From assembly GCA_963703135.1 (NCBI GenBank), contig OY969791.1, positions 46,954-110,953 on the forward strand: DNA of 64,000 bases, read 5' to 3'. This DNA comes from an uncultured Solirubrobacterales bacterium (GTDB lineage Bacteria; Actinomycetota; Thermoleophilia; Solirubrobacterales; Solirubrobacteraceae). The translations under genes and the position numbers were made by a program. Within the stretch, counting starts at the first letter, position 1, and the number at the start of each line of letters is the position of its first letter. This document shows positions 2,546 to 16,536 of this stretch, piece after piece. The notes beneath the pieces are model-generated. The model was not told the DNA's origin, ran no database searches, and saw only the letters and a program-made list of their open reading frames with translations.

Positions 2546-3694
2546 CTAGTGGCGGTGGCGGTGGCGCTTCTTGTGCTTGCGGTGCTTTGCCAAGGTGCCG
2601 ACGGGGCCGATCGCGTGACCGATGCCGGAACTCACAAAGCCCATGATTTGGCCGTTGGCGATGCGCGTGTAGACGCCCGCGTATCCCGCTTGGGCACAGC
2701 CGTTGCCGAAGTCCACGAGGCCGGCCAAGACGTAATCGAAGGGGGGGTGCGCGGGGCTGTCGCTGTCCACCACGAGCGGGCCGCCTGAGTCGCCGTAGCA
2801 GGTGTCCACGTGGGTGCGTCCCCCTCCCGCGCAGATCATCCGCGCGGTGATCGGTTGTTCGATCGTGGCGTACTGTTCTTCGCATTGGGAGTCGGACACG
2901 AGCGGCAGGTGGACGGAGCGCAAATCGGTGGGGTAGTTGGCGGGATGTCCAGGCGAGGGGTCGGTGTCGCCCCAGCCGCTGGAGGTGGCGAGGATCGCGG
3001 GGCTGCGATTCGGGTTGGCCGCGCCGGCATTTGCCTGCGGTTCCAGGGGCAGGGGCGCGATCGTGGCGAGACCGTTGATCGACGGCGTCGCGCCGGACCA
3101 TAGGGGCCGCGCCAAGGTGAGCAAGGCGATGTCGTAGTCGCTGGTGATCGGGTTGTAGTGGGAGTCGAACGTGCTTGAGGCGACCGGGTCGCGCACGGCC
3201 GTCGGTTCGGAGGCCGCGAGTGAGGTCGAACCGGCCAGCACCTCCACATCGGTGGCGTTTTCGCTCTGCCCGGCGCCGGTCACGCAGTGGGCGGCGGTGA
3301 GGACGTGGGTCGCGTCGATGATCACCCCGCCGCAGAAGAACCCGGCGGCGGGCGAGCCGGCGCGCGGGTCATAGAGGGCGACCTGAAACGGGAAGCTTGA
3401 GATCGAGGCCCCTTCCCCGCCGACGATGCTTGCTTTCGCGCGGGGCGAAGCGGCCGCGCCGCGCCTCCTCCTGGCGACCCCTCCCGTTGCGCCTGACCCA
3501 GACCTGGGGGGGGCTGCGTGCGCGCGGCCCCTCGACGCGGCCGCGCGCACGAGCGAGGGGCGAGCGCCGCCCCGGGGCGACTCGACCCCACCGCCGAAGG
3601 GACGAGCCGCCCCGGAGATCCACGCGAAGCACGCGATGGTCCCCACCACCACAATCGCGAATCGCGTTTGACCCGAGGCTATGAAGCGCTGCAT
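2546..3694 (-). CDS. Secreted trypsin-like (S1 family) serine protease with a polybasic His/Lys/Arg C-terminal tail
   Basis: IVGGEGASISSFPFQVAL..LTAAHC (His), DIALLTL (Asp) and CYGDSGGPLV (Ser) form the catalytic triad. There is an N-terminal signal/anchor FAIVVVGTIACFAWISGAA. The protein ends in AKHRKHKKRHRHRH. Confidence 0.9.
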   Translation of the reverse strand: MQRFIASGQTRFAIVVVGTIACFAWISGAARPFGGGVESPRGGARPSLVRAAASRGRAHAAPPRSGSGATGGVARRRRGAAASPRAKASIVGGEGASISSFPFQVALYDPRAGSPAAGFFCGGVIIDATHVLTAAHCVTGAGQSENATDVEVLAGSTSLAASEPTAVRDPVASSTFDSHYNPITSDYDIALLTLARPLWSGATPSINGLATIAPLPLEPQANAGAANPNRSPAILATSSGWGDTDPSPGHPANYPTDLRSVHLPLVSDSQCEEQYATIEQPITARMICAGGGRTHVDTCYGDSGGPLVVDSDSPAHPPFDYVLAGLVDFGNGCAQAGYAGVYTRIANGQIMGFVSSGIGHAIGPVGTLAKHRKHKKRHRHRH

Positions 3695-3851: not shown

Positions 3852-5327
3852 TCAGAGAGCCGACAGCTCGGCGGTGATCTCGCTCACCGCCGACTTGGCG
3901 TCGCCGAACAGCATCGAGGTCTTCGGGTCGAAGTACAGTTCGTTCTCGATGCCGGCGAAGCCGGGGTTCATGGAGCGCTTGATCACGATCACCGAACGCG
4001 AGTCGGCGACCTCGAGGATCGGCATGCCGTAGATCGGCGAGGAGGGCGTGTTCTTGGCAGCCGGGTTGGTGACGTCGTTGGCGCCGATCACCAAAGACAC
4101 GTCGGTGCGTTGGAACTCGGGGTTGGCGTCGTCCATCTCCTTGAGCTGGTCATAGGGGACGTCCGCCTCGGCAAGGAGCACGTTCATGTGGCCGGGCATG
4201 CGGCCCGCGACAGGATGAATCGCATAGCTGACCTCGACACCGCGACTCTCGAGCTCCTTGGTGAGCTCGCGTACCGCGTGCTGGGCTTGGGCGACGGCCA
4301 TGCCGTAGCCGGGCACCACAACCACGCGGTTGGCGTAGGCCAGCTGGATAGCGGCGTCGGCGGCGCTCGTGGAGCGCACCGTGCCGTCGTGGGCGCCGGC
4401 GCCTTCGGCGCCCTCGACCGCTCCCCCACCGCCGAAGCCGCCGGCCACGATCGAGGGGATCGAGCGGTTCATCGCGACCGCCATCAAGTTCGTCAGGATC
4501 GAGCCCGATGCGCCCACGATCATGCCGGCCACGATCAGGGCGGGGTTGTTGAGCGCCATGCCGGTCGCCGCGGCCGAGAGGCCCGTGAAAGCGTTCAGGA
4601 GCGAGATCACGACCGGCATGTCCGCGCCGCCGATCGGCAATACGACCGCATTGCCGAGCAGGGCGGCCACGACCAGCATGCCGATGAACAGGAGTTCGGA
4701 GTGAGCGCCCGCCACCAGGTCCACGCCGGCGGCCACCGCGAGGATCAGGAGCACCAGATTGACGATCTGCTGGGCCGGGCCCAAGGAGATCGGCCGTCCG
4801 GGAATGATTTCTTGGAGCTTGCCGAAGGCGATGTTCGATCCCCAGAAGGAAACCGAGCCGACGATCGCGGCGAACACCGAGAAGATCGCCACGTAGGTCG
4901 GCAGGGCGCCCCCGAGCCGGATCGTTTCCCCGGCGATCTCAAACGTGCGCGCGCCATAGGTGGAGCCGTGGCTGCGGAACTCGACCCAGGAGATGATCGC
5001 CACCGCGCCGCCGCCCACGCCGTTGAACAAGGCCACCATCTGGGGCATCGCGGTCATCTTCACCTGGCGCGCCGCGGGCACGCCCACGGCGACCCCGAGC
5101 GCGAGCCCCAGCGCGATCAAGCCCCAGTTGCCCTCGCCCGGGTTGAGCAAGGTCGCGATCACCGCGATCGCCATGCCGACCGCAGCGATACGGTTGCCGC
5201 GCACCGCCGTGGTGGGACCCGAGAGGCCGCGCAGGCCCTGGATGAACAGGGCGAAGGCGATTATGTAGAGGACGTAGATGAAGCTTTCGCTCTGCACGAA
5301 GCTGGTGGCGAGGGGGGCGAAGGTCAT
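3852..5327 (-). CDS. pntB: NAD(P) transhydrogenase subunit beta
   Basis: Multi-TM N-terminal half followed by the NADP(H) domain GYGMAVAQAQHAVRELTKELESRGVEVSYAIHPVAGRMPGHMNVLLAEADVPY. The start overlaps the pntAB stop by 4 nt. Confidence 0.95.
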   Translation of the reverse strand: MTFAPLATSFVQSESFIYVLYIIAFALFIQGLRGLSGPTTAVRGNRIAAVGMAIAVIATLLNPGEGNWGLIALGLALGVAVGVPAARQVKMTAMPQMVALFNGVGGGAVAIISWVEFRSHGSTYGARTFEIAGETIRLGGALPTYVAIFSVFAAIVGSVSFWGSNIAFGKLQEIIPGRPISLGPAQQIVNLVLLILAVAAGVDLVAGAHSELLFIGMLVVAALLGNAVVLPIGGADMPVVISLLNAFTGLSAAATGMALNNPALIVAGMIVGASGSILTNLMAVAMNRSIPSIVAGGFGGGGAVEGAEGAGAHDGTVRSTSAADAAIQLAYANRVVVVPGYGMAVAQAQHAVRELTKELESRGVEVSYAIHPVAGRMPGHMNVLLAEADVPYDQLKEMDDANPEFQRTDVSLVIGANDVTNPAAKNTPSSPIYGMPILEVADSRSVIVIKRSMNPGFAGIENELYFDPKTSMLFGDAKSAVSEITAELSAL

Positions 5328-5731
5328 GCGCTGCTCCCGCCGTCGCTCTTGCCCTGCCCGCCCGGGCCGGCCTGTCCACCGGAACCCGCCTGTCCGCCCG
5401 AGCCGGGGGTGCTAGCCGCGTTGTCCTCGGCCTTGGGCTTGGGGCGCGACTTGAACATGTCGAGCATCCGGTCGGTGACCAGGAAACCGCCGACGATGTT
5501 GATCGTGCCGAAAGCGACCGCGATCACGAGCAAGGCCTTGCTGAAACCGTCGAGGCCGGGCAAACCGAACAGGAGCAGCGCACCGAGCAGCACGATCCCG
5601 TGGATCGCGTTGGTGCCGCTCATGAGCGGTGTGTGCAAGGTGTTGGGCACCTTGGAGATCACGACGAAACCGATGAAGCCCGCGAGCACGAGGATCGCCA
5701 GGTTGGTCGTCAGCACGCTTGCCAGGATCAT
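5324..5731 (-). CDS. pntAB: NAD(P) transhydrogenase subunit alpha part 2 (membrane), with a Gly/Gln-rich C-terminal extension
   Basis: VPNTLHTPLMSGTNAIHGIVLLGALLL.. is typical of PntAB. It lies between pntAA and pntB with 4-nt overlaps. The tail reads TPGSGGQAGSGGQAGPGGQGKSDGGSSA. Confidence 0.9.
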   Translation of the reverse strand: MILASVLTTNLAILVLAGFIGFVVISKVPNTLHTPLMSGTNAIHGIVLLGALLLFGLPGLDGFSKALLVIAVAFGTINIVGGFLVTDRMLDMFKSRPKPKAEDNAASTPGSGGQAGSGGQAGPGGQGKSDGGSSA

Positions 5732-6924
5732 GCGCTCGCTCCCTCAGGCCCAGTCGAGCCGCTCGGCGCCGCGGCTGCCTCCACCGCGGCCTTGGCGCCC
5801 ACGCCGACGATCTCACCGTCGCGGACCGTACACGCGCCGGCCACGATCTCATCCTCGAAGTCCAGTTTCAGCTCGACCTCGCCCTTGCCCTCGCCCCCCT
5901 CGTCGATCTTTGTGACGAGCAGATCGAGTAGGGCTTGCACGTTGCGCGCGAACAGCTGGGAGGAGTGCTCGGCCATGCTGGCCGGCAGGTTCAAGGGCGA
6001 GACGATCTTCACGTCGTGCTTGACCACGGTCTGACCGGGCTCGGTCAACGCGCAATTGCCGCCGGACTCGCCGGCCAAGTCCACGATCACAGAGCCGGGC
6101 TTCATCCCTTCAACCGCCTCCGCGGTGACCAGCTTCGGAGCCGGGCGCCCAGGCACGAGCGCGGTCGTGATGACCACGTCGAAACCCTTGATCGCGTCGG
6201 TCAAGGCCTGCTGCTGCTGGGCGCGCTCGGCCTCGGTCAGCTCGCGCGCGTAGCCGCCCTCGCCGCTTGCCTCAAGACCCAAGTCCAGCCACTGGGCGCC
6301 GAGCGACTGAACCTGCTCGGCGACCTCGGGACGCACGTCATAGCCGGTCGTGCGCGCGCCCAAGCGCTTGGCGGTCGCCAGCGCCTGCAGGCCGGCCACA
6401 CCGGCGCCCAACACCAAGACCTTGGCGGGCGGGATCGTGCCGGCCGCGGTCATCAGCATCGGATAGAAACGTCCCATGTGCTCCGCGCCGAGCAGAGCCG
6501 CCTTGTAGCCGGCGATATTGCTCTGCGAGGAGAGCGCGTCCATCGACTGGGCGCGCGAGATCCTCGGGATCGACTCCATCGCAAAGGCCGTCGCTTTGGC
6601 CGCGGCGAGCGCCTTCGTGGTCTGGGGGCTCGTCAGCGGCGCCAGGAAGCCGATCAAAATCGAGCCCTGCCCGAGCAGTCCGATCTCGGCCTCGCTGGGC
6701 GGCGAGATCTTCACGACCACCTCAGAGCGCCACACCTCGCCCGTGTCGGCGGTCAACCGGGCGCCCGCGTCCTCGAAGGCGCTGTCTGGCAGGAGGGCGT
6801 CTGCGCCCGCGCCAGCCTCGACCAGGACATCAATGCCCTTGGCCTTCAACTTGGCGACGACCTCCGGGACGAGCGCTACTCGATGCTCGCCCGCGGCGGT
6901 CTCCTTCGGAACACCTACCCGCAT
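5728..6924 (-). CDS. pntAA: NAD(P) transhydrogenase subunit alpha part 1 (alanine-dehydrogenase-like)
   Basis: MRVGVPKETAAGEHRVALVPE.. plus the Rossmann motif KVLVLGAGVAGLQALATAKRLGA. Start trimmed to the ATG at 6924 (M13 of ORF 5728..6960). Confidence 0.92.
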   Translation of the reverse strand: MRVGVPKETAAGEHRVALVPEVVAKLKAKGIDVLVEAGAGADALLPDSAFEDAGARLTADTGEVWRSEVVVKISPPSEAEIGLLGQGSILIGFLAPLTSPQTTKALAAAKATAFAMESIPRISRAQSMDALSSQSNIAGYKAALLGAEHMGRFYPMLMTAAGTIPPAKVLVLGAGVAGLQALATAKRLGARTTGYDVRPEVAEQVQSLGAQWLDLGLEASGEGGYARELTEAERAQQQQALTDAIKGFDVVITTALVPGRPAPKLVTAEAVEGMKPGSVIVDLAGESGGNCALTEPGQTVVKHDVKIVSPLNLPASMAEHSSQLFARNVQALLDLLVTKIDEGGEGKGEVELKLDFEDEIVAGACTVRDGEIVGVGAKAAVEAAAAPSGSTGPEGASA

Positions 6925-7007
6925 GAAGGCCGGGAAAGTATCGGATCTGCCCGACGCCACGCAGTCCGGTCCGGGTCGGCGGGTCCTTGTGCAAGACTCG
7001 AAGCGCC

Positions 7008-7613
7008 ATGACGGTCAACCTGACGCGCATCTACACCAAGCTCGGAGACGGCGGCCAGACGCACCTGGGAGACATGAGCCGCGTCTCCAAGCTGCATCCT
7101 CGCGTGGAGGCCTATGGGACCGTGGATGAGCTCAACGCGACGATCGGCCTGGCCCTGCTCGCGCCCGGCATGCCCGGGCGCTTCGTCGAGTGGCTCGAGC
7201 GCGTCCAGAACGATTTGCTCGACGTGGGCGCCGACCTGTCGGTGCCGGGTCCCGCCGAGGAGGAGCCCGACCAGACGCGCAAGGGCCAGCAGCGCCTGCG
7301 CGTCGGCCCCGAGTACGCGGCCTGGTTGGAGCAGGTCTGCGACGAGGTCAACGCGACGCTCGCTCCTCTGCGCTCGTTCGTGATCCCCGGAGGCACGCCT
7401 GCCTCCGCCCACCTGCACATCTGCCGCACCGTCTGTCGCCGCGCCGAGCGTCGCGCGATCGCCGTTGAGGACTGCAACCCGGAGACGATCCGCTATTTGA
7501 ATCGACTGTCGGACATGCTTTTCATCCTCTCCCGCGCCGCGCGTGAGCACGAGCCGGGCTCCGAGCCACTATGGGCTCCAGGCGCGCACGGCTCCGGGCG
7601 AACGCCTTCTTAG
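7008..7613 (+). CDS. pduO: PduO-type ATP:cob(I)alamin adenosyltransferase
   Basis: MTVNLTRIYTKLGDGGQTHLGDMSRVSKLHPRVEAYGTVDELNATIGLAL.. is the N-terminal signature of PduO/MMAB-type adenosyltransferases. Start taken at the ATG at 7008. Confidence 0.85.
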   Translation: MTVNLTRIYTKLGDGGQTHLGDMSRVSKLHPRVEAYGTVDELNATIGLALLAPGMPGRFVEWLERVQNDLLDVGADLSVPGPAEEEPDQTRKGQQRLRVGPEYAAWLEQVCDEVNATLAPLRSFVIPGGTPASAHLHICRTVCRRAERRAIAVEDCNPETIRYLNRLSDMLFILSRAAREHEPGSEPLWAPGAHGSGRTPS

Positions 7614-8279
7614 ACCCGCGGTCCTGGGCCCGAGCGCGTCGCCGTCCTGCCCCGCCGCGCGCAACGCCGCGAACGCCAAGGCCGCCCAGAACGTCGCCAG
7701 CAGATAGCCGCCCACGACATCGCTCGGCATGTGCCACGCGAGCACCAGCAAAGCGCCGCCGACCGCCAGCGCGAAGACCGCTCCGACCGCGGCCACGAAG
7801 CGGCGCTCGGTTGGCGGGGCAACCAGCAAGGCACACCAAACGAGCGTGGTCGCGGCGGTCGCGTGACCGCTCGGCCACGAAGCGTTGGCGATGTATTTCG
7901 GGCCGATCTGATCGTGATGGTGGGCCAGCAGCGGCTTCAGCAGCTCTGCGCTCAGAGGCGCCAACGGCAGCAGGATCGCGACCGCCAAGGCCACCCACGC
8001 CAGGCGACGGCGCAAAGCGATGGCGACCAAGCCGATTCCCCAGGCGGCGTAGAAGGGCGGGTAGAGCAGGTCCAGCAGAGCGTTGGCGGGCGCTTCCACG
8101 AGCGGGCGATTCAGGCGCGTGAAGTCATACAAGGCGACCGCGTCCTTGACATGGGTGATCGGCACAAGCTCGGCCAAGGTCCAGGTGATCGCCAGCCCCA
8201 CCACGCACAGCCCCGCCACGAGCAGGGCCAGCCGCGCGAGGCGACGGTCGCCGGGCGGGGCGCGCACGATCATGGACAT
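7569..8279 (-). CDS. PAP2-family membrane phosphatase
   Basis: Six hydrophobic segments plus the PAP2 motifs SWPSGHATAA and AWHMPSDVVGG. It lies 110 nt downstream of, and on the same strand as, the ECF operon. Confidence 0.75.
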   Translation of the reverse strand: MSMIVRAPPGDRRLARLALLVAGLCVVGLAITWTLAELVPITHVKDAVALYDFTRLNRPLVEAPANALLDLLYPPFYAAWGIGLVAIALRRRLAWVALAVAILLPLAPLSAELLKPLLAHHHDQIGPKYIANASWPSGHATAATTLVWCALLVAPPTERRFVAAVGAVFALAVGGALLVLAWHMPSDVVGGYLLATFWAALAFAALRAAGQDGDALGPRTAGLRRRSPGAVRAWSP

Positions 8280-8388: not shown

Positions 8389-10032
8389 TCAGGCGGGCGC
8401 GATCGGAAACGGCTTGCCCGCGAGCGCCGCGAGCGCCTCGGCGGTCACCCATACCGGCGTTTGCGCGCTGGTGCGCGAATAGCGCACGCTCCCGTCGGGG
8501 CCAGACAGGCTCTCCAGGTAGCCGATCGGCGAGCGGCTGGCGCCTCTCTTGACAGCGCTCGGGTTCACACCGGCGGCCACCAGGCCCTGGACCGCCCAGG
8601 CCGTCGACTGGGCGTTGGATTCGCCGCCCGGCTGTTGGGGAAAGCCACCGTCGGGATTCTGGGCGCGACGCAGATAGGCCACCGCGCGAGCTGTCAGCCC
8701 ACTGTTTCGCTGCCCCGTCGCTGCCACCGCGGCCTGCAATGCCGCCGCCGTGTCGTCCACGTCCTCGCTGCCCCCGCGCCCGGCGAAACCGAAGCCACCG
8801 TCGCGATCCTGCTGCACCGCCAACCATCTCCCCGCCGAGTTCACGAGCTGATTGTCCGACGCCTTGCCGGCCACACGCAAAGCGAGAATCGCAAAGGCCG
8901 TGATGTTCACCAGGTGCGCGAACGAGCCGTCGCTCGAGCGTTCGCGACGCAAATCGGCGAGCAGCCCCCCACCGCCGAAGGCCGAGGCGGGCAAGCCGCA
9001 GGCATGCAAGGCCAGGATCGTGCGCTCATAGTCCCCGGCACCTTGCAGAGTGGAGTCCTGGCCCCGCAACGCGTCGAGCACCGAGTGCCCGCCACGCTTC
9101 AAAGTCAGCGGATTGCGACCCGCGGCCGCCAAGCCGATCGCCGCCCAGGAGGAATACAGCTCGCTGCTGCGCTGCCCCTTGGCCGCACCGAAGCCGCCGT
9201 CGCCGTTCTGGGCGCCCTCCAGGTAGGCCACGCCGCGCGAGAGCGCCGAGGAAGCGGCGCGGGCCACGCCCACGCCGGTCCTCGCGGGGGCCGGTGGCAC
9301 CAAAGCCGCGGAGTTCCGTGCCCGCAAAACGGTTGCCCCACGCGCGCGCGCAGGGTGGCCGATCGCGTACATACCCCCGCCCACCAGCGCGACCACAACA
9401 AGTGCCGCCGCGGCGGGCGGACTGACCGGCTTCCACTCGACCGTCATGCGGGCCCGCACGCGACCCAGCAGCCGCGCCAGCTCGGGCCCGAAGGCGAACC
9501 CGAACAGGAAGCTCGCCACAACATCGGTTATGTCGTAAGGCAGGGATTGGCCCGCCGTCAAAAAGAAGGCGACCGGCGTGTGGCTGGCCCCCAAAGTCCA
9601 CGTGTACACGTTCATGATCTCCTTCGCCACCAAAGCCATGACCGCGCATGCCAGCGCGATCCCAAAGCGCCCCAAGCGCCTGCCGCTGAGACGCCCAAGC
9701 GCTGCGCCTGCAAGGCCCACAAGCCCCCATGCGGCCATCTGCCAAGGCGTGTAGGGCCCCTGGCCGAGCACGATGTTCGAGGCCAGCATCCCGATCGCCC
9801 CCACCGCGAAGCCCGGGATCGGCCCAAGCGCATAGCCCACGACCAAGGTCATCGCCGTGATCGGCTTCACGTCGGGCAGCGCCACGAACGCGTCGCGCCC
9901 CAGGGCCGCCACGGCCGCCAATGTGCCGACGACCGCGGTCATGCGCGCCGTAGGTCGCGAGCGCTCATAGGCCAGCCAGCCCGCGACCAGCACGCCGAAG
10001 ACGATCGCAAAGCTCGCCACGAGCCAGCTCAC
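8389..10032 (-). CDS. ECF-transporter S-component-like membrane domain fused through an extra TM helix to a prenyltransferase/squalene-cyclase-type alpha/alpha-toroid repeat domain
   Basis: The N-terminal ~200 aa contain about six helices (VASFAIVFGVLVAGWLAY, ITAMTLVVGYALGPIPGFAVGAIGMLASNIVLG, WQMAAWGLVGLAGAALG ..). A further helix AAAALVVVALVGGGMYAI follows. After it come the repeats YLEGAQNGDGGFG, WLAVQQDRDGGFGF, YLRRAQNPDGGFPQ and YLESLSGPDGSVRY. The GTG start overlaps the ecfA stop (GTGA at 10029-10032). Confidence 0.7.
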   Translation of the reverse strand: MSWLVASFAIVFGVLVAGWLAYERSRPTARMTAVVGTLAAVAALGRDAFVALPDVKPITAMTLVVGYALGPIPGFAVGAIGMLASNIVLGQGPYTPWQMAAWGLVGLAGAALGRLSGRRLGRFGIALACAVMALVAKEIMNVYTWTLGASHTPVAFFLTAGQSLPYDITDVVASFLFGFAFGPELARLLGRVRARMTVEWKPVSPPAAAALVVVALVGGGMYAIGHPARARGATVLRARNSAALVPPAPARTGVGVARAASSALSRGVAYLEGAQNGDGGFGAAKGQRSSELYSSWAAIGLAAAGRNPLTLKRGGHSVLDALRGQDSTLQGAGDYERTILALHACGLPASAFGGGGLLADLRRERSSDGSFAHLVNITAFAILALRVAGKASDNQLVNSAGRWLAVQQDRDGGFGFAGRGGSEDVDDTAAALQAAVAATGQRNSGLTARAVAYLRRAQNPDGGFPQQPGGESNAQSTAWAVQGLVAAGVNPSAVKRGASRSPIGYLESLSGPDGSVRYSRTSAQTPVWVTAEALAALAGKPFPIAPA

Positions 10033-11885
10033 GACACTCCTCCCTGACCGACCGCTCCCTGCCCCACCGCCGCCCTACCCACCGCCGCCTGGCCCACCGC
10101 CGCCTGGCCCACCGCCGCCTGGCCCACCGCCGCCTGGCCCACCGCTCCCAGAGGCTCGGCGCGCCCCGCTTGCGAGCGGACCGCTGTCCGTCCGCGCGCG
10201 GCCAAGACATTGGCGCCCGCCTCCGGCTCCAGCGCCTCGACTGCGCCCCCGAGAATGCGGGCGGTTTCGGTCGAGAAGTACCAGCCGCCGGCCAGTAGCT
10301 CCGCGGCCGGGCCGTCCGCGATCACGCGCCCGTCCGCCAGCAGGACGGCCCGCTCGGCGCATGCCGCCGCGAACTCGGGGTCGTGCGTGGCCACGATCAC
10401 CGCCTGACCCCCTTCGGCGCGGCGACGCAACTCGGCGGCAAGCGCCGCTTTGGCCTCGCGGTCCATGCCGCGCGTGGGCTCGTCCAAGGCCAGGACCACC
10501 GGCGCATCCTCGGCCTGCTCCGGCTCGCCCTCCGGCCCCGGCCCAGCTCCCGCCCGGGCCGCATCGCCCTCCGGCGCCACGATCGCCAAGGCCAGGCGCT
10601 GGCGCTCCCCGCCGGACAGATCCCTCGGGTTGCGCTCGCCCAAGCCTGCCAGCCCCGCGGCCGCCAACGCACCTGGCGACACTTCGTCGGCGACGCGCTC
10701 GCGCAGGAAGTAATCGTTGGGGTTCTGTAGCAGCAACGCCACCCGCCCCGCCGTATCCACCCTGCCCCGCGTGGGACCCAACAGGCCCGCCGCGTGACGC
10801 AGAAGCGTCGACTTGCCCGCCCCGTTGCGTCCCATCAAAGCGACCGTCTCGCCACCTCGCACGACCAGATCGACACCGCGCAGGATCGCCGGGCCGCGCG
10901 GAATCTCATACCAAAGCCCCCTGATCGAGAGGGGCACGCCGGTCCCTCCCCCAAACCGCAAGCCCCGGCGAGGAGCGGGCTTGGCCTCTGCACCGCGGCG
11001 GCGGGACAACAAGCCGCCCCCAGGACCAGCCGCCGCCGTCACACGCTGCGCCTCGCCCTCCAGCAGCCCGCGGGCGCGCAGCGTCGCACGAGCCTGCTTG
11101 ACGCCGACCGGGGCGGGACTCAGCCCGGACAGGGCAAACAGCTTGGCGCCGGGCGTCTGTAGCGCCGGCGCCTCGCTGCGCGCCCACTCCAAGAAGTCCT
11201 TCGGCGAACCGTCGTGCGCGACGCGACCCCCGTGCATCGCGATCGCCCGGTCGGCGGCCGCCAAGCAGCGCTCCAAGCGGTGCTCGCACAGCAGGATCGT
11301 CATGTCCCACTCCTGGTTGAGCCTGCGCAACAGCCCGATCAGCTCATCGCCCGCGACCGGGTCCAGTTGCGAGGTGGGCTCGTCGAGCAGCACCACCTTC
11401 GGGCGTCCCGCAAGCGCCGCGCCCAGCGCGACCCGCTGCTGCTCGCCACCCGAGAGCTCTTGGGTGGAGCGCTCCAGCAGACGGTCGATGCCGAGCGCCA
11501 AAGCCACCTCCTCGACCCCCCTTGCCACCATCGCCGGTGTGTGGCCCCTGTTTTCAAGCGCCAGCGCCAGCTCCGCGCGCACCGAGCCCATCACCAGCTG
11601 CGTCTCCGGGTCTTGGAACAGGGCGCCCGTCAGCGCTCCCAGGCGCGCCGGGGGATGCTCGCGCGTGTCGAGTCCCTCGACCGTCACCCTGCCCGCGAAC
11701 GAGCCGCCAAAGAAGTGCGGCGCCAGACCGCACGCCGCTCTGAGCAGCGTGGACTTGCCGTGCCCCGAGAGCCCCGCCAACACGCACATCTCCCCCGGCT
11801 CGATCGTCAAGCTCACGTCGAGCAGCGCCGGAGTCTCGGCCCCCGGGTAGGTGTAGGTGACGCGCTCGAAAGCGACCGCGCTCAC
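10029..11885 (-). CDS. ecfA: Fused double ABC ATPase of an ECF transporter (EcfA-EcfA')
   Basis: Two cassettes are present. Walker A motifs are GLSGHGKST and GRNGAGKST. Signature motifs are LSGGEQQRV and LSGGERQRL. Walker B motifs are VVLLDEP and VLALDEP. Start taken at GTG 11885 (VSAVAFERVTYTYPG, GAAGGA 4-5 nt upstream). The track ORF extends to TTG 11951. Confidence 0.88.
   Translation of the reverse strand: MSAVAFERVTYTYPGAETPALLDVSLTIEPGEMCVLAGLSGHGKSTLLRAACGLAPHFFGGSFAGRVTVEGLDTREHPPARLGALTGALFQDPETQLVMGSVRAELALALENRGHTPAMVARGVEEVALALGIDRLLERSTQELSGGEQQRVALGAALAGRPKVVLLDEPTSQLDPVAGDELIGLLRRLNQEWDMTILLCEHRLERCLAAADRAIAMHGGRVAHDGSPKDFLEWARSEAPALQTPGAKLFALSGLSPAPVGVKQARATLRARGLLEGEAQRVTAAAGPGGGLLSRRRGAEAKPAPRRGLRFGGGTGVPLSIRGLWYEIPRGPAILRGVDLVVRGGETVALMGRNGAGKSTLLRHAAGLLGPTRGRVDTAGRVALLLQNPNDYFLRERVADEVSPGALAAAGLAGLGERNPRDLSGGERQRLALAIVAPEGDAARAGAGPGPEGEPEQAEDAPVVLALDEPTRGMDREAKAALAAELRRRAEGGQAVIVATHDPEFAAACAERAVLLADGRVIADGPAAELLAGGWYFSTETARILGGAVEALEPEAGANVLAARGRTAVRSQAGRAEPLGAVGQAAVGQAAVGQAAVGQAAVGRAAVGQGAVGQGGVS
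10048..10152 (-). repeat. 15-bp in-frame tandem repeat (4 perfect and about 3 degenerate copies of CCCACCGCCGCCTGG on the + strand) encoding (AAVGQ)n at the EcfA C-terminus
   Basis: Perfect copies at 10078-10092, 10093-10107, 10108-10122 and 10123-10137. Degenerate copies flank them. The ecfA frame translates the region as GAVGQAAVGQAAVGQAAVGQAAVGRAAVGQGAVGQGGVS. Confidence 0.95.
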
Positions 11886-11922
11886 GGGATCCTTCGATCG
11901 GATCGACCGGTTCCAGACGAGT

Positions 11923-12828
11923 TCACGGCTCGATGCCCCTGCGGTCCGCAAATGGAGCGAGGATCGCGAGCGCCAGCACCAACGCGAGCGCAGCCGTCTC
12001 GCCGGCGGCCGCCGCTTTGATTTCGGGGTAGGCCTCGAATGCGGCGAATCCCGCCAATCGCGCCGCCAGCGCGAGGGCCGCCACGGCGAGGGCCGAGGTC
12101 GCGAACGCCAGATCGTGGCGCGACCACGGGATCGGTCTGCGCTGGGCGCGTCTGCCCTCGGCGAAGCCTCGCAGCTCCAAGGTCGCCGCCACGTCCATGG
12201 CGCGGTCCAAGGAGGAGGACAAGATTGCGCTCACGAGGGTGCCCTGCGTGCGCGCGCGCGAAAGACGGCCCTCTCCGCGCGTGCGCGTGGGCCGGGTCCT
12301 CTGCGCTTCTGCGAGCCGACGCGCGTCGCCGGCCAACACGGGGACCATGCGGGTCGCCAGCGACGCCGTCAGCGCCGAGCGAAACGAGAGTCTGCGCACG
12401 CCCCGCAGCAGCTCGTCCGGATCGACCGCCAAGCTGCCCAAGGTCGTGGCCAGCATCAACAGCGACACCTTCAGCGCGATCACCACGCCATAGACGAGCG
12501 CCTCGACCGTCAAGTTTCCCTGGCCGAAAGGCCCCAAATCGCCGAGCCGCGCGAACACGGTCAAACCGTCCCGCGACACAAGCACGTTCACGACGACGAT
12601 CGGCAGCGCCACGATCGCCGCCATCCGCAGCGAGCGCAAGACCTGAGGACCCACGCCCGCCGCCGCGCCCGCTGCCACGATCGCGCCCAGCTCGGCTGCC
12701 AACACGAACGGGCTTTCGCTAGCGAGCGCGGCCACGATCAAGGCGGCTGTCCAGGCCGCTCCCACGCTCGCGCGCGTGGCGTGCAACGGGCTCGCCAAGC
12801 GCCTATAGAAGAGGGTGTCCCCGATCAC
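11923..12828 (-). CDS. ecfT: ECF transporter transmembrane (T) component, CbiQ/EcfT family
   Basis: C-terminal 302 codons of ORF 11923..13734. The protein is a multi-TM protein with LSFRSALTASLATRMVPVLAGDARRLAEAQRTR.. and SLDRAMDVAATLELRGF, typical of CbiQ/EcfT. The GTG start at 12828 overlaps the upstream stop (GTGA). The remainder of the 603-aa ORF is an out-of-frame overlap with the DUF4430 gene. Confidence 0.8.
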   Translation of the reverse strand: MIGDTLFYRRLASPLHATRASVGAAWTAALIVAALASESPFVLAAELGAIVAAGAAAGVGPQVLRSLRMAAIVALPIVVVNVLVSRDGLTVFARLGDLGPFGQGNLTVEALVYGVVIALKVSLLMLATTLGSLAVDPDELLRGVRRLSFRSALTASLATRMVPVLAGDARRLAEAQRTRPTRTRGEGRLSRARTQGTLVSAILSSSLDRAMDVAATLELRGFAEGRRAQRRPIPWSRHDLAFATSALAVAALALAARLAGFAAFEAYPEIKAAAAGETAALALVLALAILAPFADRRGIEP

Positions 12829-13766
12829 GGTGTCGGCACCGGGCGCGCCGTGCCGTCGGCTTCCAGCGCCAGCGCGAAACGGTCGTGGAGCGCCGCTTCG
12901 GAGAAAGCCGCCGCCGCGTGTTCCACCCCGTTCGCGTCGGTGCCTGTGACCACCCACAGTGGCTCCTCTTGGGCGTAGCGAGTGGCGGCCACCAGGCCCC
13001 CTCCCGCGCCCAGCGTCTTGGTCCTGTGTCCCTGCGCGTCGAGCAGGCTCAAGGAATGCCCGTCGCCCGCAAAGCGCGCATACACCCCGCTTGCGCCCGG
13101 CCCCCGCTCGATCGCCTCGCTCGCCGGCGTGGCCCTCACCGCCTGCCAAGGCCCGACCAGCACCCGCAACGTTTCCGGCTCGTCTCCCGGGCCGATCCCC
13201 GCGATCGCGGCCGGCACGCCCGCGGCACGCAGTCGGGCGACCACCGTCTGGCAGGCCTTGCCTTGCACTTCGGCGCATTCCACGCGCACCGGCAACCGCT
13301 TGCCTTCGCTGCCGTTCACGAACGGCTCCGGAAAAGACCCGACGACCGCCGGCACGTCCTCGGTTTGGCTCCAGTCGTGCAGGTCCCACCAGATGTGGTC
13401 GCCCGCGTGGACATCTGTGCCGGCCCCGCCCTTGGGCGCCTCGATCCCGTTGACGTAATAGAACCAGTCGACCGGTTCCCCTCCCTGCGTGGTGCCCGCA
13501 CGCCCGTCGATGCTCTGCACGAAGCCGCCCCCGTACCTGGTCGTGACCTGGTGGTTGCGCATCAACAGGCTCATGACCGTCTCCTGGCCGCTCACCTTCG
13601 GCGCCCCTTGGCCTCCGAGCGGCTTGGCGCCGAAGTCTTCGGTCACGCTCAGGTGGATCGCGCTCGGCGTGGCGCCCGGCCCGATCCCGCAGCCGCCGAC
13701 AGCCGCCGCCACCAGGCCGAGCGCAACCGCCCAAATCGGGCGCCTACTTGACATAAAAGACGACAT
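12825..13766 (-). CDS. Lipoprotein with an N-terminal DUF4430-like (transcobalamin beta-domain-like) module
   Basis: Signal peptide with lipobox (LGLVAAAVGGCG). The DUF4430-style block is TVMSLLMRNHQVTTRYGGGFVQSIDGRAG..VDWFYYVNGIEAPKGGAGTDVHAGDHIWWDLHDW. An alternative ATG lies at 13754. Confidence 0.7.
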   Translation of the reverse strand: MSSFMSSRRPIWAVALGLVAAAVGGCGIGPGATPSAIHLSVTEDFGAKPLGGQGAPKVSGQETVMSLLMRNHQVTTRYGGGFVQSIDGRAGTTQGGEPVDWFYYVNGIEAPKGGAGTDVHAGDHIWWDLHDWSQTEDVPAVVGSFPEPFVNGSEGKRLPVRVECAEVQGKACQTVVARLRAAGVPAAIAGIGPGDEPETLRVLVGPWQAVRATPASEAIERGPGASGVYARFAGDGHSLSLLDAQGHRTKTLGAGGGLVAATRYAQEEPLWVVTGTDANGVEHAAAAFSEAALHDRFALALEADGTARPVPTP

Positions 13767-15003
13767 GGCTCACGCCGGGGACGAGCTTGGTGAATTCTCC
13801 CGCGTCGTTGACCGCCTTGACGTCGTACACGTAGCGACCCCTCGGCAGAGCCGCCGGCAGCAGATAGCTGAACGACTCGGTGTCGCCCACCATAAAGAAC
13901 CTCTTCGTCCCGCAACGACTGGTCACAAAGCGTCCCTTCGAGCCGCTGAAGGCAAAACAGCGTTTGCCCTTACGCCGCGCCAAGCTGATCCGCACTTCCT
14001 TGAGCGAGCCGCCCGCAGGCACGCTGACCGTGCCGTTGAGGATCCTCGGGGCTTTGCGCTTGGAGTACACGCGTCCCGGCTTGATCCCCGTCACCCTCGG
14101 GTAGGAGCTGACATGCGGCAGGCGGATCGTTGGGCAGCTGGCCGAGCCGGCGGCAGCAACGGCACACTCGACCGGTGGTTTGCCGGGCCCAAGCGGTCCT
14201 CCGCACGACGCCGAAGCAGACGCGGTAGCACACGCGACCGTCGGCGCGCAGACGCCATCGTCGCCGTTATGCACGCAGATCGTCGCCTCGGTGCGCACCG
14301 CCGGTGGGCCAGTCGCGGCTCCGTTGACCCGCAGTGTGTAGGAGCCCGCACCGATGAACTTCAGTGTCGCGTGACCTTGCGAATCGGTAGTCGCTTCGGC
14401 CCCGTCCCCAACCACGCTCGCGCCGACCGCAGGCGAGGGTTCGCCCTTGGCGTTGTACTGCTTCACGCTCACCGCAGTCGCTTCGCCGACGTTGGCCGTG
14501 GTGGGCGCTTCGATCTCTAGTGGCGTGGGGTTCGGTGGGCAGGCAGAGCCTTCGCATTCGACCAAAAGCAATACGTTTGCACCGGGCGCCAGTTCGACGC
14601 CACATACTCCGTGTTCTGTTTGAAAAACGTCGTTCAACCAGAACGACCAGAAGTAGTTTGCGTTCGAACCAAGTTCGAAGGGGTGACTCTCGCCCCCGAT
14701 CATTTCGACCGAGTAGCCGACTTCATCACCAAACCACTTGCCGCCCCAATTGCCGGCAGTCGCCAGCTGTAGCGCGCCAGCGGCGCTGGTGCCCGGACAC
14801 GAGTCAGCTTCGTTGCCGTCCTTGACGACAGGCGTCGTCGTGGTAGTGACGAGCGTCGGCGGAAGCTTTGTTTCGCTTAGCCCCTCAACCCTGACGGTGA
14901 CCTGGGCGGGCATCCCGGCGGCAAGCGCGCGGGCCGGGACGAACAGACAAAAGAGCGCGACAGCGAGGACCGCCGAGCGCGAGCAAATACGAGCTTGAGA
15001 CAT
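13744..15003 (-). CDS. Secreted protein: N-terminal DUF4430-like module plus two beta-sandwich (Ig/CarboxypepD_reg-like) regions; first gene after the riboswitch
   Basis: Signal peptide SAVLAVALFCLFVPARALAA. The next block, QVTVRVEGLSET..SAAGALQLATAGNWGGKW..GYSVEMIGGES..NYFWSFWLNDVFQ..ELAPGANVLLLVEC, resembles DUF4430. The ATG at 15003 has GAAAGGGG 8 nt upstream. The track ORF begins at TTG 15012. Confidence 0.65.
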   Translation of the reverse strand: MSQARICSRSAVLAVALFCLFVPARALAAGMPAQVTVRVEGLSETKLPPTLVTTTTTPVVKDGNEADSCPGTSAAGALQLATAGNWGGKWFGDEVGYSVEMIGGESHPFELGSNANYFWSFWLNDVFQTEHGVCGVELAPGANVLLLVECEGSACPPNPTPLEIEAPTTANVGEATAVSVKQYNAKGEPSPAVGASVVGDGAEATTDSQGHATLKFIGAGSYTLRVNGAATGPPAVRTEATICVHNGDDGVCAPTVACATASASASCGGPLGPGKPPVECAVAAAGSASCPTIRLPHVSSYPRVTGIKPGRVYSKRKAPRILNGTVSVPAGGSLKEVRISLARRKGKRCFAFSGSKGRFVTSRCGTKRFFMVGDTESFSYLLPAALPRGRYVYDVKAVNDAGEFTKLVPGVSHVVFYVK

Positions 15004-15039
15004 TGCAGCCAACCCCTTTCCACGAGGGCTTTGTGGGCT

Positions 15040-16522: not shown

Positions 16523-16536
16523 TCTTGATTGCCACC

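Follow-up and report, generated by a model that had tools for sequence, protein, structure and literature searches.

A putative riboswitch-controlled corrinoid ECF importer of Solirubrobacterales with an S component fused to an alpha/alpha toroid

We analyzed a window of 64,000 nucleotides from the genome of an uncultured Solirubrobacterales bacterium and lean toward the view that one of its operons encodes a riboswitch-controlled group I ECF importer for corrinoids, in which an alpha/alpha toroid tethered to the S component would join with DUF4430 partner proteins to sandwich the corrinoid and hand it off to the S component. Literature searches yielded no description of a covalent S component-toroid fusion, and this feature seems to be undescribed; the rest of the arrangement has already been predicted. 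Reports from 2007 and 2019 already place toroids with DUF4430 partners beside ECF genes, and the novelty claimed in a preliminary description of this DNA is thereby narrowed to the covalent fusion.

RESULTS

A conserved gene joins an S component to an alpha/alpha toroid

The open reading frame at 8389..10032 (minus strand) encodes a protein of 547 aa, exactly as first described, and its GTG start overlaps the stop codon of the preceding ATPase gene as GTGA. Database searches returned 5691 matches to this protein, the best 120 of which align over the full length at 69 to 96% identity, and relatives are encoded in 321 genome records, the best 80 of which all belong to Solirubrobacterales. The fusion is a real, conserved gene, and its assignment as a CbrT-like S component joined to a toroid draws on the open reading frame, Pfam matches, homologs, an AlphaFold2 (AF2) model, and an alignment with CbrT.

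When the profile of the S-component core was compared with the PDB, the sole match was chain 6fnp_A (CbrT; E 9.1e-24), with profile positions 26-196 aligning to CbrT residues 6-175 over the full length. Entry 6FNP is ECF-CbrT, and CbrT has been shown experimentally to be an S component for cobalamin and cobinamide (PMC5997447). This match bears out the earlier reading of the N-terminal part as a true S component and places it in the cobalamin/cobinamide-specific CbrT family. The window protein itself falls slightly under the gathering cut-offs of both Pfam ECF-ribofla_trS and ECF_trnsprt; among diverse members, ECF_trnsprt is matched by 16 of 16 and ECF-ribofla_trS by 15 of 16.

The AF2 model contains eight transmembrane helices (residues 2-25, 29-48, 56-69, 71-89, 96-116, 122-149, 153-195, and 207-223). 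Six of these lie inside the span aligned with CbrT (residues 26-196; 9445..9957, minus strand), so that model and alignment together predict a six-helix core flanked by an extra helix on each side. The first (residues 2-25; 9958..10029, minus strand) is an AF2 helix that precedes the start of the CbrT alignment at residue 26; the second (residues 207-223; 9364..9414, minus strand) is seen in both hydropathy and the AF2 model. Both have low AF2 confidence (pLDDT 43-66). Only a single extra helix had been expected; that helix, AAAALVVVALVGGGMYAI, was found after the core at residues 207-224, whereas the total of seven helices gives way to eight. The protein begins M-S-W, with S2 and W3 invariant among 101 sequences, and this N-terminus is predicted to lie outside the cell.

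Beyond the last helix, an Ala/Pro/Arg-rich tether (residues 224-256; 9265..9363, minus strand) is predicted to be disordered, with pLDDT below 50 and a length that differs across the alignment. It leads to the alpha/alpha toroid (residues 257-540; 8413..9264, minus strand), which was delimited from an AF2 model with pLDDT above 90, Foldseek, and profiles. The toroid has QW-like repeats, and all four repeats listed in the preliminary description were recovered within it, at residues 270-282, 403-416, 453-466, and 505-518. A typical CbrT-family S component stands alone, has a length of ~180-200 aa, and keeps both termini in the cytoplasm; because the fusion has 547 aa, an extra helix at either end, and a 285-aa C-terminal domain, it is a derived form and not a typical representative of that family. 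Membership in the SCO2321 family (NCBIfam NF053823) was considered and ruled out, the score being 88.6 bits in three partial stretches against a cut-off of 300; the fusion is related to that family through its toroid, yet is not a member.

A cobalamin riboswitch heads the operon

The fusion is the fifth gene of an operon with the order betaA, betaB, EcfT, EcfAA', and fusion, headed by a cobalamin riboswitch aptamer (RF00174; 15033..15218, minus strand; Rfam 81 bits, E 2e-18) that ends ~30 nt before the ATG and Shine-Dalgarno sequence of the first gene. RF00174 was detected upstream on the same strand in nine of nine related loci using Rfam, and our own covariance model found the riboswitch in every one of the 70 related Solirubrobacterales loci whose upstream DNA is long enough. 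Surveying the fusion next to RF00174 thus indicates that corrinoid control is universal among its relatives (70/70 such loci). A scan of the locus for promoters and terminators gave nothing usable in this high-GC DNA.

Directly upstream of the fusion, joined by overlapping stop and start codons and kept in related loci, are the genes for an EcfT of the CbiQ family (11923..12828, minus strand; PF02361, E 1.8e-18), whose GTG start overlaps the betaB stop codon, and for a fused EcfA-EcfA' ATPase (10029..11951, minus strand; alternative GTG start at 11885). The latter has two ABC domains, with ABC_tran found twice and matches to both the ECF_ATPase_1 and ECF_ATPase_2 models. Its C-terminal tail is encoded by a 15-nt tandem repeat. 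Gene order is conserved across the related loci.

The gene 110 nt downstream of the fusion encodes a PAP2-family membrane phosphatase (7569..8279, minus strand; PF01569, E 2e-12) and may be part of the operon; by tblastn, PAP2 lies downstream in 76 of 80 loci, mostly immediately after the fusion. We also considered PAP2 as a part of the machine on account of P0245, an 816-aa protein that runs S component, toroid, and PAP2, and rejected it: the PAP2 topology would be inverted in such a chain, and an internal Met corresponds to the usual gene start, so P0245 is probably a read-through product. Convergent with these genes is one for a PduO-type cob(I)alamin (corrinoid) adenosyltransferase (6987..7613, plus strand; TIGR00636, 168 bits against a cut-off of 108), which keeps its position and orientation in 75 of 80 loci.

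The operon encodes two exported DUF4430-like proteins

DUF4430-like proteins are encoded separately in the same operon as the fusion, as had been proposed; one carries a signal peptide and the other a conserved LAGC lipobox. The claim that DUF4430 itself occurs twice stands for betaB, a 313-aa lipoprotein (12825..13766, minus strand) identified by Pfam and by the lipobox of its orthologs. Its DUF4430 (transcobalamin C-terminal-like) domain occupies 13377-13583 (minus strand; PF14478, E 3.3e-12, 47 bits), and 61 of 70 orthologs have a lipobox-like motif near the start, mostly LAGC.

For betaA the same claim must be softened to DUF4430-like. This exported protein of 422 aa with a signal peptide (13744..15012, minus strand; the ATG at 15003 is likely the true start) had no Pfam match of its own even at E<=10, and a BLASTP search with its N-terminal domain returned no match. 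A divergent DUF4430/SLBB-like beta-grasp domain is nonetheless assigned at 14533-14913 (minus strand) from ortholog annotation and hhalign, because some full-length orthologs carry PF14478 and the domain matches that of betaB (Prob 84%, E 8e-6). The AF2 secondary structure runs bb-a-bb-b-b and continues into two beta sandwiches, which correspond to two Ig-like domains; in a Foldseek search with the AF2 model of the whole protein, matches to Ig/FnIII tandems dominate, and these do not inform on the N-terminal domain.

DUF4430 is the family of the transcobalamin (TC) beta domain: residues 334-406 of human TC match PF14478 at 25 bits, above the cut-off of 23.8. Direct hhalign comparisons of the betaA and betaB domains with the TC beta domain are weak (E 0.04-0.16), so the link is drawn through the shared Pfam model.

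A different fusion occupies the same locus in two relatives

At the syntenic locus of two other Solirubrobacterales genomes (L081 and L082), the toroid is instead joined to the betaA DUF4430 protein, and the S component, homologous to the fusion core (hhalign Prob 98%, E 3e-13), is encoded as a separate protein. These loci have the same riboswitch and the same pnt and PduO neighbors and are without PAP2. This alternative architecture ties S component, toroid, and DUF4430 to each other. Single-chain DUF4430-toroid fusions in relatives have the order beta then alpha. Related toroids also occur in giant multi-toroid surface proteins (P0289, P0291, and P0355).

The toroid resembles terpene cyclases more closely than transcobalamin

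The toroid fold is confirmed by the high pLDDT of the model and by Foldseek matches to alpha/alpha toroids, the top ones being class II terpene cyclases, both monodomain and others, and prenyltransferase beta subunits. The best fold matches are 8pak and 8paj, squalene-hopene cyclase (SHC) entries of 342-347 residues (TM 0.63), and the type II terpene cyclase MstE. Pfam matches are to Prenyltrans (2e-12) and SQHop_cyclase_C (4e-10), and the toroid profile matches SHC with an E value of 4.3e-44. No match to PF01122 (Cobalamin_bind) was obtained at E<=0.01, a model that human TC matches at 4e-114; TC, intrinsic factor (IF), and haptocorrin were absent both from the top 50 Foldseek matches obtained in the PDB with the model of the whole fusion and from the 60 toroid profile matches listed. 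Given the SHC match, its DVDDTA motif, and these absences of Cobalamin_bind and of TC, IF, and haptocorrin, the toroid has far closer kin among the class II terpene cyclases than in transcobalamin.

The motif spans residues 424-429 (8746-8763, minus strand) and is identical to the catalytic motif of squalene-hopene cyclase. D424, D426, D427, and T428 are invariant in the 101-sequence alignment, and among more diverse family members the central Asp and the Thr alone are invariant. The most conserved residues of the toroid are D426, T428, and SNAQST at 472-477.

A remote relationship to transcobalamin is also detectable. Compared by hhalign with the alpha domain of TC, IF, and haptocorrin, the toroid gave E values of 1.1e-4 (Prob 56%) and 4.3e-5 (Prob 69%) over ~185 collinear columns, against 0.13-0.57 for control pairs of non-matching domains; the alignment used for TC, IF, and haptocorrin comprised five sequences validated against PDB chains, and a three-mammal TC alignment, too thin as a profile, gave 0.023. 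Invariant positions of the TC family have conserved counterparts in the toroid (VDT-AMA versus DVDDTAA, and ST--A-Q-L versus STAWAVQGL). The hhalign match may reflect mere shared superfamily ancestry. The idea of a split transcobalamin therefore holds for the DUF4430 half, which belongs to the TC beta-domain family, and much less for the toroid, whose role as a transcobalamin alpha half is weakly supported by the collinear match to the carriers and countered by its closer kinship with terpene cyclases.

What the toroid may do

Judged from gene context and homology, the toroid probably helps the two exported partners to catch B12. It is unlikely, though far from negligible, that the toroid of a corrinoid ECF importer does not bind the ligand and serves instead as a docking platform or spacer for corrinoid-binding DUF4430 proteins, or as an envelope anchor for the S component. 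Homology to a known B12-binding domain reaches the family level for the DUF4430 half alone, the similarity of toroid and TC is remote, the multi-toroid surface proteins suggest a structural or adhesive use, and solo DUF4430 proteins are common according to the SLBB survey (PMC1796856). However, toroid and DUF4430 co-occur repeatedly, fused in either order; both TC domains contact the ligand, as stated in that survey (PMC1796856); and D426, T428, and SNAQST 472-477 align with invariant motifs of the TC family.

We consider it improbable that the toroid is an enzyme, in which case it would act as a monodomain acid catalyst of the class II terpene cyclase type or would bind isoprenoid lipids, perhaps jointly with PAP2. 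The supposed target would be a polyprenyl lipid or the corrinoid itself, and the invariant DVDDTA, the QW-like repeats, the fold and profile matches to 8pak/8paj, MstE, and SHC, and the downstream PAP2 gene, of a lipid-phosphate phosphatase family, in 76 of 80 loci would all suit such an activity. The toroid shares QW repeats, the alpha/alpha fold, and the DxDD(TA) acid motif with class II terpene cyclases and departs from them in location, which for these enzymes is on the cytoplasmic side, and in isoprenoid-pathway context. Its predicted site is extracytoplasmic, and the context of B12 riboswitch, ECF genes, DUF4430, and PduO has no isoprenoid link. Moreover, the motif may be structural, with only the central Asp and Thr invariant in the wider family and V-D-T retained in the TC family; PAP2 is absent from the L081/L082 architecture; and synteny in this clade is kept generally, beyond the operon.

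The evidence points to a corrinoid substrate

A substrate other than cobalamin, namely heme, another tetrapyrrole or corrinoid-related compound, or incomplete corrinoids or lower-ligand precursors only, appears quite improbable. Heme uptake has been argued for a homologous gene set of Lactobacillus sakei (bioRxiv 10.1101/864751), CbrT also carries cobinamide (PMC5997447), and Burroughs et al. leave "B12 or its precursors" open (PMC1796856). Against this stand the cobalamin riboswitch strictly conserved before the operon, the homology of the S core to CbrT (E 9e-24), and the adjoining adenosyltransferase gene, three features that point to corrinoids and do not separate cobinamide from cobalamin. 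The position of PduO next to the fusion operon parallels the nrdJ-cbrS-cbrT-pduO cluster of Lactobacillus delbrueckii (PMC5997447), and this neighbor lends support to corrinoid salvage.

An outward-facing toroid is predicted

As the preliminary description had argued from helix parity, the toroid very likely sits on the outer side of the membrane: the CbrT alignment predicts a cytoplasmic C-terminus for the core, a single transmembrane helix follows, related toroids carry Sec or lipoprotein signal peptides, and the betaA and betaB partners have export signals of their own. The argument survives the eighth helix because only the cytoplasmic C-terminus of the core matters. The tether helix has a hydropathy of ~2.0 over 19 residues, and the segment is hydrophobic in homologs, though its sequence is variable. 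Because Arg residues flank it on both sides, the positive-inside rule alone is ambiguous here. Homologous toroids with 45-55% identity are found behind cleavable signal peptides, behind lipoboxes, or in one chain with a signal peptide and DUF4430.

That helix 207-223 fails to span the membrane, or that the core has a different topology, leaving the toroid cytoplasmic and unrelated to extracellular capture, is very hard to credit: the Arg-rich sequence on both sides of the helix, its low pLDDT, and the metagenomic P0245, in which the toroid runs into a PAP2 domain whose first helix is expected to begin in the cytoplasm, are outweighed by the CbrT alignment, the hydropathy of the 19-residue segment, and the export signals of the homologous toroids, P0245 being a single representative most simply explained as read-through of adjacent genes.

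DISCUSSION

We favor an arrangement in which a corrinoid ECF importer of group I, with a module dedicated to it, would be turned off by B12 through the riboswitch. Its CbrT-family S component would have gained one transmembrane helix at each end, the C-terminal one probably derived from the signal anchor of a toroid protein that was once separate; this helix would return the chain across the membrane and place the ~285-aa toroid outside on a flexible tether of ~33 residues. There the toroid would pair with the beta-grasp DUF4430 domain of the exported partners, the lipoprotein and the secreted protein with Ig-like spacers, and a corrinoid would be held between them as it is between the two domains of transcobalamin. 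With the toroid tethered to the S component, the captured corrinoid would be freed right above the S-component pocket; import would then be driven by the EcfT/EcfAA' module, and the cofactor could afterward be adenosylated by the neighboring PduO-type enzyme. Gene content, regulation, family assignments, conservation, and the alternative fusions are observations, whereas the topology, the binding of a corrinoid by toroid and DUF4430, and its transfer are inferred. Several points weigh against this explanation: the one homologous operon studied so far, that of L. sakei, was connected by its authors with heme and not with B12, the toroid is closest to terpene cyclases, the positive-inside rule is ambiguous at the tether helix, both extra helices have low pLDDT, and two extra transmembrane helices and a tethered domain must fit the toppling of the S component.

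We propose, as a tentative formulation, a bipartite transcobalamin-like ECF capture device, in which corrinoids would be gripped outside the cell between the tethered toroid and a DUF4430 protein, either lipoprotein or secreted, and passed to the S pocket. The toroid of such a device could be joined to the transporter or to the DUF4430 partner. Among bacteria the device would be a membrane-bound equivalent of the B12 carriers of animals, to which it may also be related by descent.

To our knowledge, little is known of how Gram-positive bacteria scavenge picomolar B12, and we know of no characterized ECF importer of B12 other than ECF-CbrT, which works without accessory proteins. This locus suggests that an extracytoplasmic capture stage has been added across a whole order of abundant soil Actinobacteria. 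The S component-toroid fusion offers a clean experimental handle, with the putative capture domain and the translocating subunit on one polypeptide, and the toroid-DUF4430 fusion at the syntenic locus is an independent line of genomic evidence for a joint action of the three parts. By textbook definition, ECF importers operate without an extracytoplasmic binding protein. If binding proves true, this rule would have to be qualified, the 2007 prediction that bacterial toroid and SLBB proteins bind B12 would receive its first test, and the result would bear on the proposal that transcobalamin-type carriers arose in bacteria; if there is no binding, a conserved extracellular DVDDTA toroid requires another explanation.

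Comparison with known systems

ECF-CbrT of L. delbrueckii (6FNP; PMC5997447) shares with the present system the core family, energization by EcfT, EcfA, and EcfA', a corrinoid link, and a nearby pduO. CbrT, however, has 182 aa and nothing beyond its six helices, and it draws on a shared housekeeping ECF module (group II), whereas the module described here is dedicated and riboswitch controlled, its ATPases are fused, and its S component has an extra transmembrane helix at each end, a 285-aa domain predicted to be extracytoplasmic, and exported DUF4430 partners.

Two earlier reports come close. Verplaetse et al. described an ECF operon of L. sakei with separate exported TC-alpha-like and TC-beta-like proteins (bioRxiv 10.1101/864751). 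This gene set, Lsa1836-1840, likewise comprises an S component, a fused AA' ATPase, a T component, a TC-beta-like protein, and a TC-alpha-like protein, with extracellular scavenging preceding ECF transport; its alpha-like protein, likened to TC by description, is separate and secreted, its authors propose heme as the substrate and state that cobalamin-binding residues are missing from their S component, and the description that we saw does not mention a riboswitch. Burroughs, Balaji, Iyer, and Aravind predicted in 2007 that bacterial SLBB/DUF4430 and alpha/alpha-toroid proteins encoded beside CbiO and CbiQ scavenge B12 (PMC1796856). Their proteins resemble ours in the toroid-SLBB/DUF4430 pairs, the paralogous SLBB proteins per operon, and the CbiO/CbiQ-like neighbors, and differ in that the toroid is fused to SLBB, in either order, or to surface-anchoring domains; the consulted part of that paper mentions no fusion to an S component and assigns neither a riboswitch nor CbrT.

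Mammalian TC, IF, and haptocorrin (PF01122 plus PF14478) likewise combine an alpha/alpha toroid with a beta-grasp domain of the shared DUF4430 family, and their toroids are remotely and collinearly similar to the one described here. They are single soluble chains, alpha then beta, taken up by receptor-mediated endocytosis, whereas here the halves are split over two or three genes, one encoding a transporter subunit, and the toroid lies outside PF01122 and is structurally nearer to terpene cyclases. Class II terpene cyclases (SHC, 1GSZ/1SQC; 8PAK/8PAJ; MstE, 6SBB) are the best matches in sequence and fold and share the QW-like repeats and DVDDTA; in contrast to them, the present protein has a single toroid, predicted to be extracytoplasmic, that is fused to a vitamin transporter and has no isoprenoid context.

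In the group I ECF systems CbiMNQO and NikMNQO, the S component carries an additional helix at its extracellular N-terminus and has accessory transmembrane partners, and in CbiM the metal is ligated by this N-terminus itself; we know of no large ectodomain in these systems. Type I ABC importers such as GlnPQ and OpuA, which are not ECF transporters, carry domains of the classical substrate-binding-protein fold covalently tethered to a membrane subunit, and in this respect they resemble the fusion described here, with its putative capture domain likewise joined to the subunit in the membrane.

Results

The open reading frame at positions 8389 to 10032 (reverse strand), encoding a 547-amino-acid product, is present as the preliminary description had it and is a real gene; its GTG start codon and the stop codon of the ATPase gene upstream of it overlap in the sequence GTGA, and a ribosome-binding site (GGGAGGAG) precedes this start. 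A protein search recovered 5691 relatives, the best 120 of which are full length (69 to 96% identity) and annotated only as [quoted passage not shown] or "ECF substrate-specific component." Relatives are encoded in 321 genome records; each of the top 80 is a Solirubrobacterales MAG, and the closest locus (L034) reaches 95% identity to the fusion in the best aligned segment.

The operon is headed by a cobalamin riboswitch (RF00174; 15033 to 15218, reverse strand; 81 bits with Rfam), followed on the same strand by betaA (422 aa, with a divergent DUF4430/SLBB-like domain and two Ig-like domains), betaB (a 313-aa DUF4430 lipoprotein; domain match, 3e-12), EcfT, a fused EcfAA', and the S-toroid fusion. 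Rfam found the riboswitch in all 9 divergent related loci, and a covariance model that we built from these 9 recovered it in 70 of 80 related loci, missing it only in ten truncated contigs that extend less than 2.3 kb upstream. These ten contigs lack betaA and betaB as well; each of the two genes occurs in the other 70 loci. The aptamer ends about 30 nt 5' of the first start codon, which suggests that control acts at the ribosome-binding site. In some loci, e.g., L031 (about 2590 to 3356, forward strand), a third exported DUF4430-like paralog lies between betaA and betaB. The C terminus of the fused EcfAA' has an (AVGQA)n tail encoded by a 15-nt tandem repeat (10042 to 10149, reverse strand; 7.2 copies, 87% matches) that sits just before the S-component start codon.

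Convergent with the operon is a gene for a PduO-type cob(I)alamin (corrinoid) adenosyltransferase (6987 to 7613, forward strand; TIGR00636, 168 bits against a cutoff of 108), found at the same position in 75 of the 80 loci, an adjacency that resembles the cbrT-pduO cluster of L. delbrueckii. It overlaps by about 45 nt the 3' end of a PAP2-family membrane phosphatase gene (7569 to 8279, reverse strand), which starts 110 nt beyond the end of the fusion gene; a PAP2 match follows the fusion gene in 76 of the 80 loci, mostly immediately. The first PAP2 motif of the window protein looks degenerate (KPLLAHHH versus KxxxxxxRP). A metagenomic protein joining S component, toroid, and PAP2 in one chain (P0245, 816 aa) is probably a read-through. 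Beyond the adenosyltransferase gene lie the pntAA/pntAB/pntB transhydrogenase genes (3852 to 6960, reverse strand), and upstream of the riboswitch is a gene for a ferredoxin-reductase-like FAD oxidoreductase (15266 to 16576, reverse strand), matched in 59 of the 80 loci.

An AF2 model of the fusion built with 101 sequences (mean pLDDT, 79.5) has helices at residues 2 to 25, 29 to 48, 56 to 69, 71 to 89, 96 to 116, 122 to 149, 153 to 195, and 207 to 223, then a disordered stretch (224 to 256) and an all-helical domain, the toroid (257 to 540; pLDDT above 90). A profile built from the first 200 residues of 16 diverse fusions, searched against the whole PDB, had a single match, 6fnp_A (E, 9.1e-24), residues 6 to 175 of which align with positions 26 to 196; 6FNP is ECF-CbrT, the ECF transporter for cobalamin and cobinamide that has been characterized experimentally in L. 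delbrueckii (PMC5997447). Given this sole match over these positions, the core is a six-helix CbrT-family S component, preceded by helix 2 to 25 and followed by helix 207 to 223. Six helices plus one had been counted before; the model and the CbrT alignment bear out the helix after the core but add an N-terminal one that had been overlooked. Pfam DUF6580 (PF20221, unknown function) matches the CbrT-like core (residues about 30 to 185) in 8 of the 16 diverse fusions (best E, 4e-8), and this family may thus consist of S components related to CbrT.

In S components of the CbrT type the N and C termini are both cytoplasmic, and the Arg-rich loops of the core (22 to 32, 114 to 121, and 186 to 206) alternate with uncharged loops in agreement with this. 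Because one further hydrophobic helix follows (207 to 223; hydropathy about 2.0), the toroid would lie outside the cell, a placement also supported by exported homologous toroids and exported operon partners. Toroid homologs at 45 to 55% identity include stand-alone proteins whose signal peptides are of the Sec or lipoprotein type, and some follow a signal peptide and a DUF4430 domain within one chain; betaA has a signal peptide, and 61 of 70 betaB orthologs have a lipobox-like motif near the start, mostly LAGC. The N terminus of the fusion, M-S-W (residues 1 to 3; 10024 to 10032, reverse strand), does not vary among 101 homologs; it precedes the extra transmembrane helix and is predicted to lie outside the cell. 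In CbiM/NikM the substrate pocket is entered by the extracellular N terminus, and by analogy M-S-W may take part in substrate binding or gating.

The proposal that the toroid and the separate DUF4430 proteins form a split transcobalamin (TC) holds better for one half than for the other. Residues 334 to 406 of human TC (sequence validated as identical to PDB 7qbf) match Pfam DUF4430 above the gathering score, and betaB scores more strongly on the same model. betaA has no Pfam match, but it aligns with betaB (hhalign Prob 84%, E, 8e-6), and some full-length betaA orthologs carry PF14478; the beta half is thus well supported by sequence comparison. The alpha half is less clear, its nearest relatives being class II cyclases. 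By sequence profile the toroid is nearest to squalene-hopene cyclase (SHC; E, 4e-44) and other class II cyclases, and by fold (Foldseek) to SHC entries of 342 to 347 residues, drimenyl-diphosphate synthase, SHC, and prenyltransferase beta subunits; TC, intrinsic factor, and haptocorrin were not among the fold or profile matches listed, and Pfam Cobalamin_bind had no match in the toroid. The domain retains QW-like repeats and a DVDDTA motif (residues 424 to 429; 8746 to 8763, reverse strand), invariant in the close family, with D426 and T428 invariant in the diverse set; the catalytic acid motif of SHC has the same sequence.

Against a five-sequence alignment of TC, intrinsic factor, and haptocorrin (sequences validated), the toroid aligned over about 185 collinear columns (hhalign E, 1.1e-4; Prob 56%), and against their alpha domain alone at E 4.3e-5 (Prob 69%); control comparisons of non-matching domains gave E values of 0.13 to 0.57. 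DVDDTA falls on the invariant V-D-T of the three carriers, and their invariant V-D-T-x-A-M-A, S-T-x-x-A-x-Q-x-L, and Q-x-L-P-x-L-x-x-K have conserved toroid counterparts (DVDDTAA and STAWAVQGL for the first two; the third motif lies at the end). We read this likeness as true but remote superfamily homology; it does not establish the toroid as a specific TC-alpha ortholog.

A search with one single-chain DUF4430-Ig-toroid protein recovered about 20 clusters of such fusions, including three named Solirubrobacteraceae. The two loci examined, from two other Solirubrobacterales genomes, share their chromosomal neighborhood with the window: the PduO adenosyltransferase gene and pntAA/AB/B are their neighbors too. 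Here the order is riboswitch (115 bits with our own covariance model), a betaA DUF4430-Ig protein fused to the toroid (L081, 8001 to 9593; L082, 8001 to 9623; both forward strand), a membrane-anchored DUF4430-like protein (in L081 it has 287 aa, a Pro-rich linker, and a transmembrane anchor at the C terminus), CbiQ, EcfAA', and a stand-alone S component; PAP2 is absent from this arrangement. The S component (259 to 285 aa) is homologous to the window core (hhalign Prob 98%, E, 2.8e-13), has an N-terminal extension, and lacks the extra C-terminal helix and the toroid. The toroid is therefore fused to one of two partners, the transporter subunit in the window and the DUF4430 protein in L081 and L082, and this alternation, the strongest genomic argument here, suggests that S component, toroid, and DUF4430 proteins are one functional unit. 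Giant metagenomic proteins have three to five tandem toroid copies (P0289, 1786 aa; P0291; P0341; P0355).

Discussion

Most likely, the window system would be a dedicated, B12-repressed ECF corrinoid importer, in which the exported DUF4430 proteins and the tethered toroid would hold the corrinoid between them outside the membrane and let it go beside the CbrT-like pocket. Since stand-alone toroid homologs with N-terminal signal peptides exist and the toroid is partly similar to the 405-position NCBIfam "SCO2321 family membrane protein" model, the tether helix (207 to 223) would most simply derive from the signal anchor of a toroid protein that was formerly separate.

A rival reading makes the toroid a mere docking scaffold. 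In another it is a cyclase-like enzyme, as its nearest relatives might suggest, possibly linked to PAP2; the conservation of the oxidoreductase and pnt genes indicates that gene order in this clade is kept beyond the operon, which weakens arguments from synteny alone, such as that for PAP2. A third has a substrate other than corrinoid, e.g., heme, which has been claimed for L. sakei; the CbrT-like core and the cobalamin riboswitch speak against it. A cytoplasmic toroid has little support beside its exported homologs; the charge around the tether helix is ambiguous, with Arg on both flanks.

The searchable literature yielded no toroid fused to an S component, nor two extra helices on an S component, strict riboswitch control, or a toroid whose fusion partner alternates at the same locus. 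The S-toroid fusion overturns nothing yet; for specialists it is a clean system in which to test whether ECF transport can include an extracytoplasmic capture stage. Burroughs et al. 2007 (PMC1796856) describe bacterial SLBB domains of the TC C-terminal clade fused to alpha/alpha toroids, with paralogs in one operon adjoining CbiO- and CbiQ-like genes, and predict B12 scavenging. Verplaetse et al. (bioRxiv 10.1101/864751) describe an ECF operon of L. sakei in which the TC-alpha-like and TC-beta-like proteins are separate and exported, and they draw the same scheme of capture followed by transport, with heme as the substrate. The capture concept is therefore already published, and we rate the S-toroid system as a variant of a published but only predicted kind.
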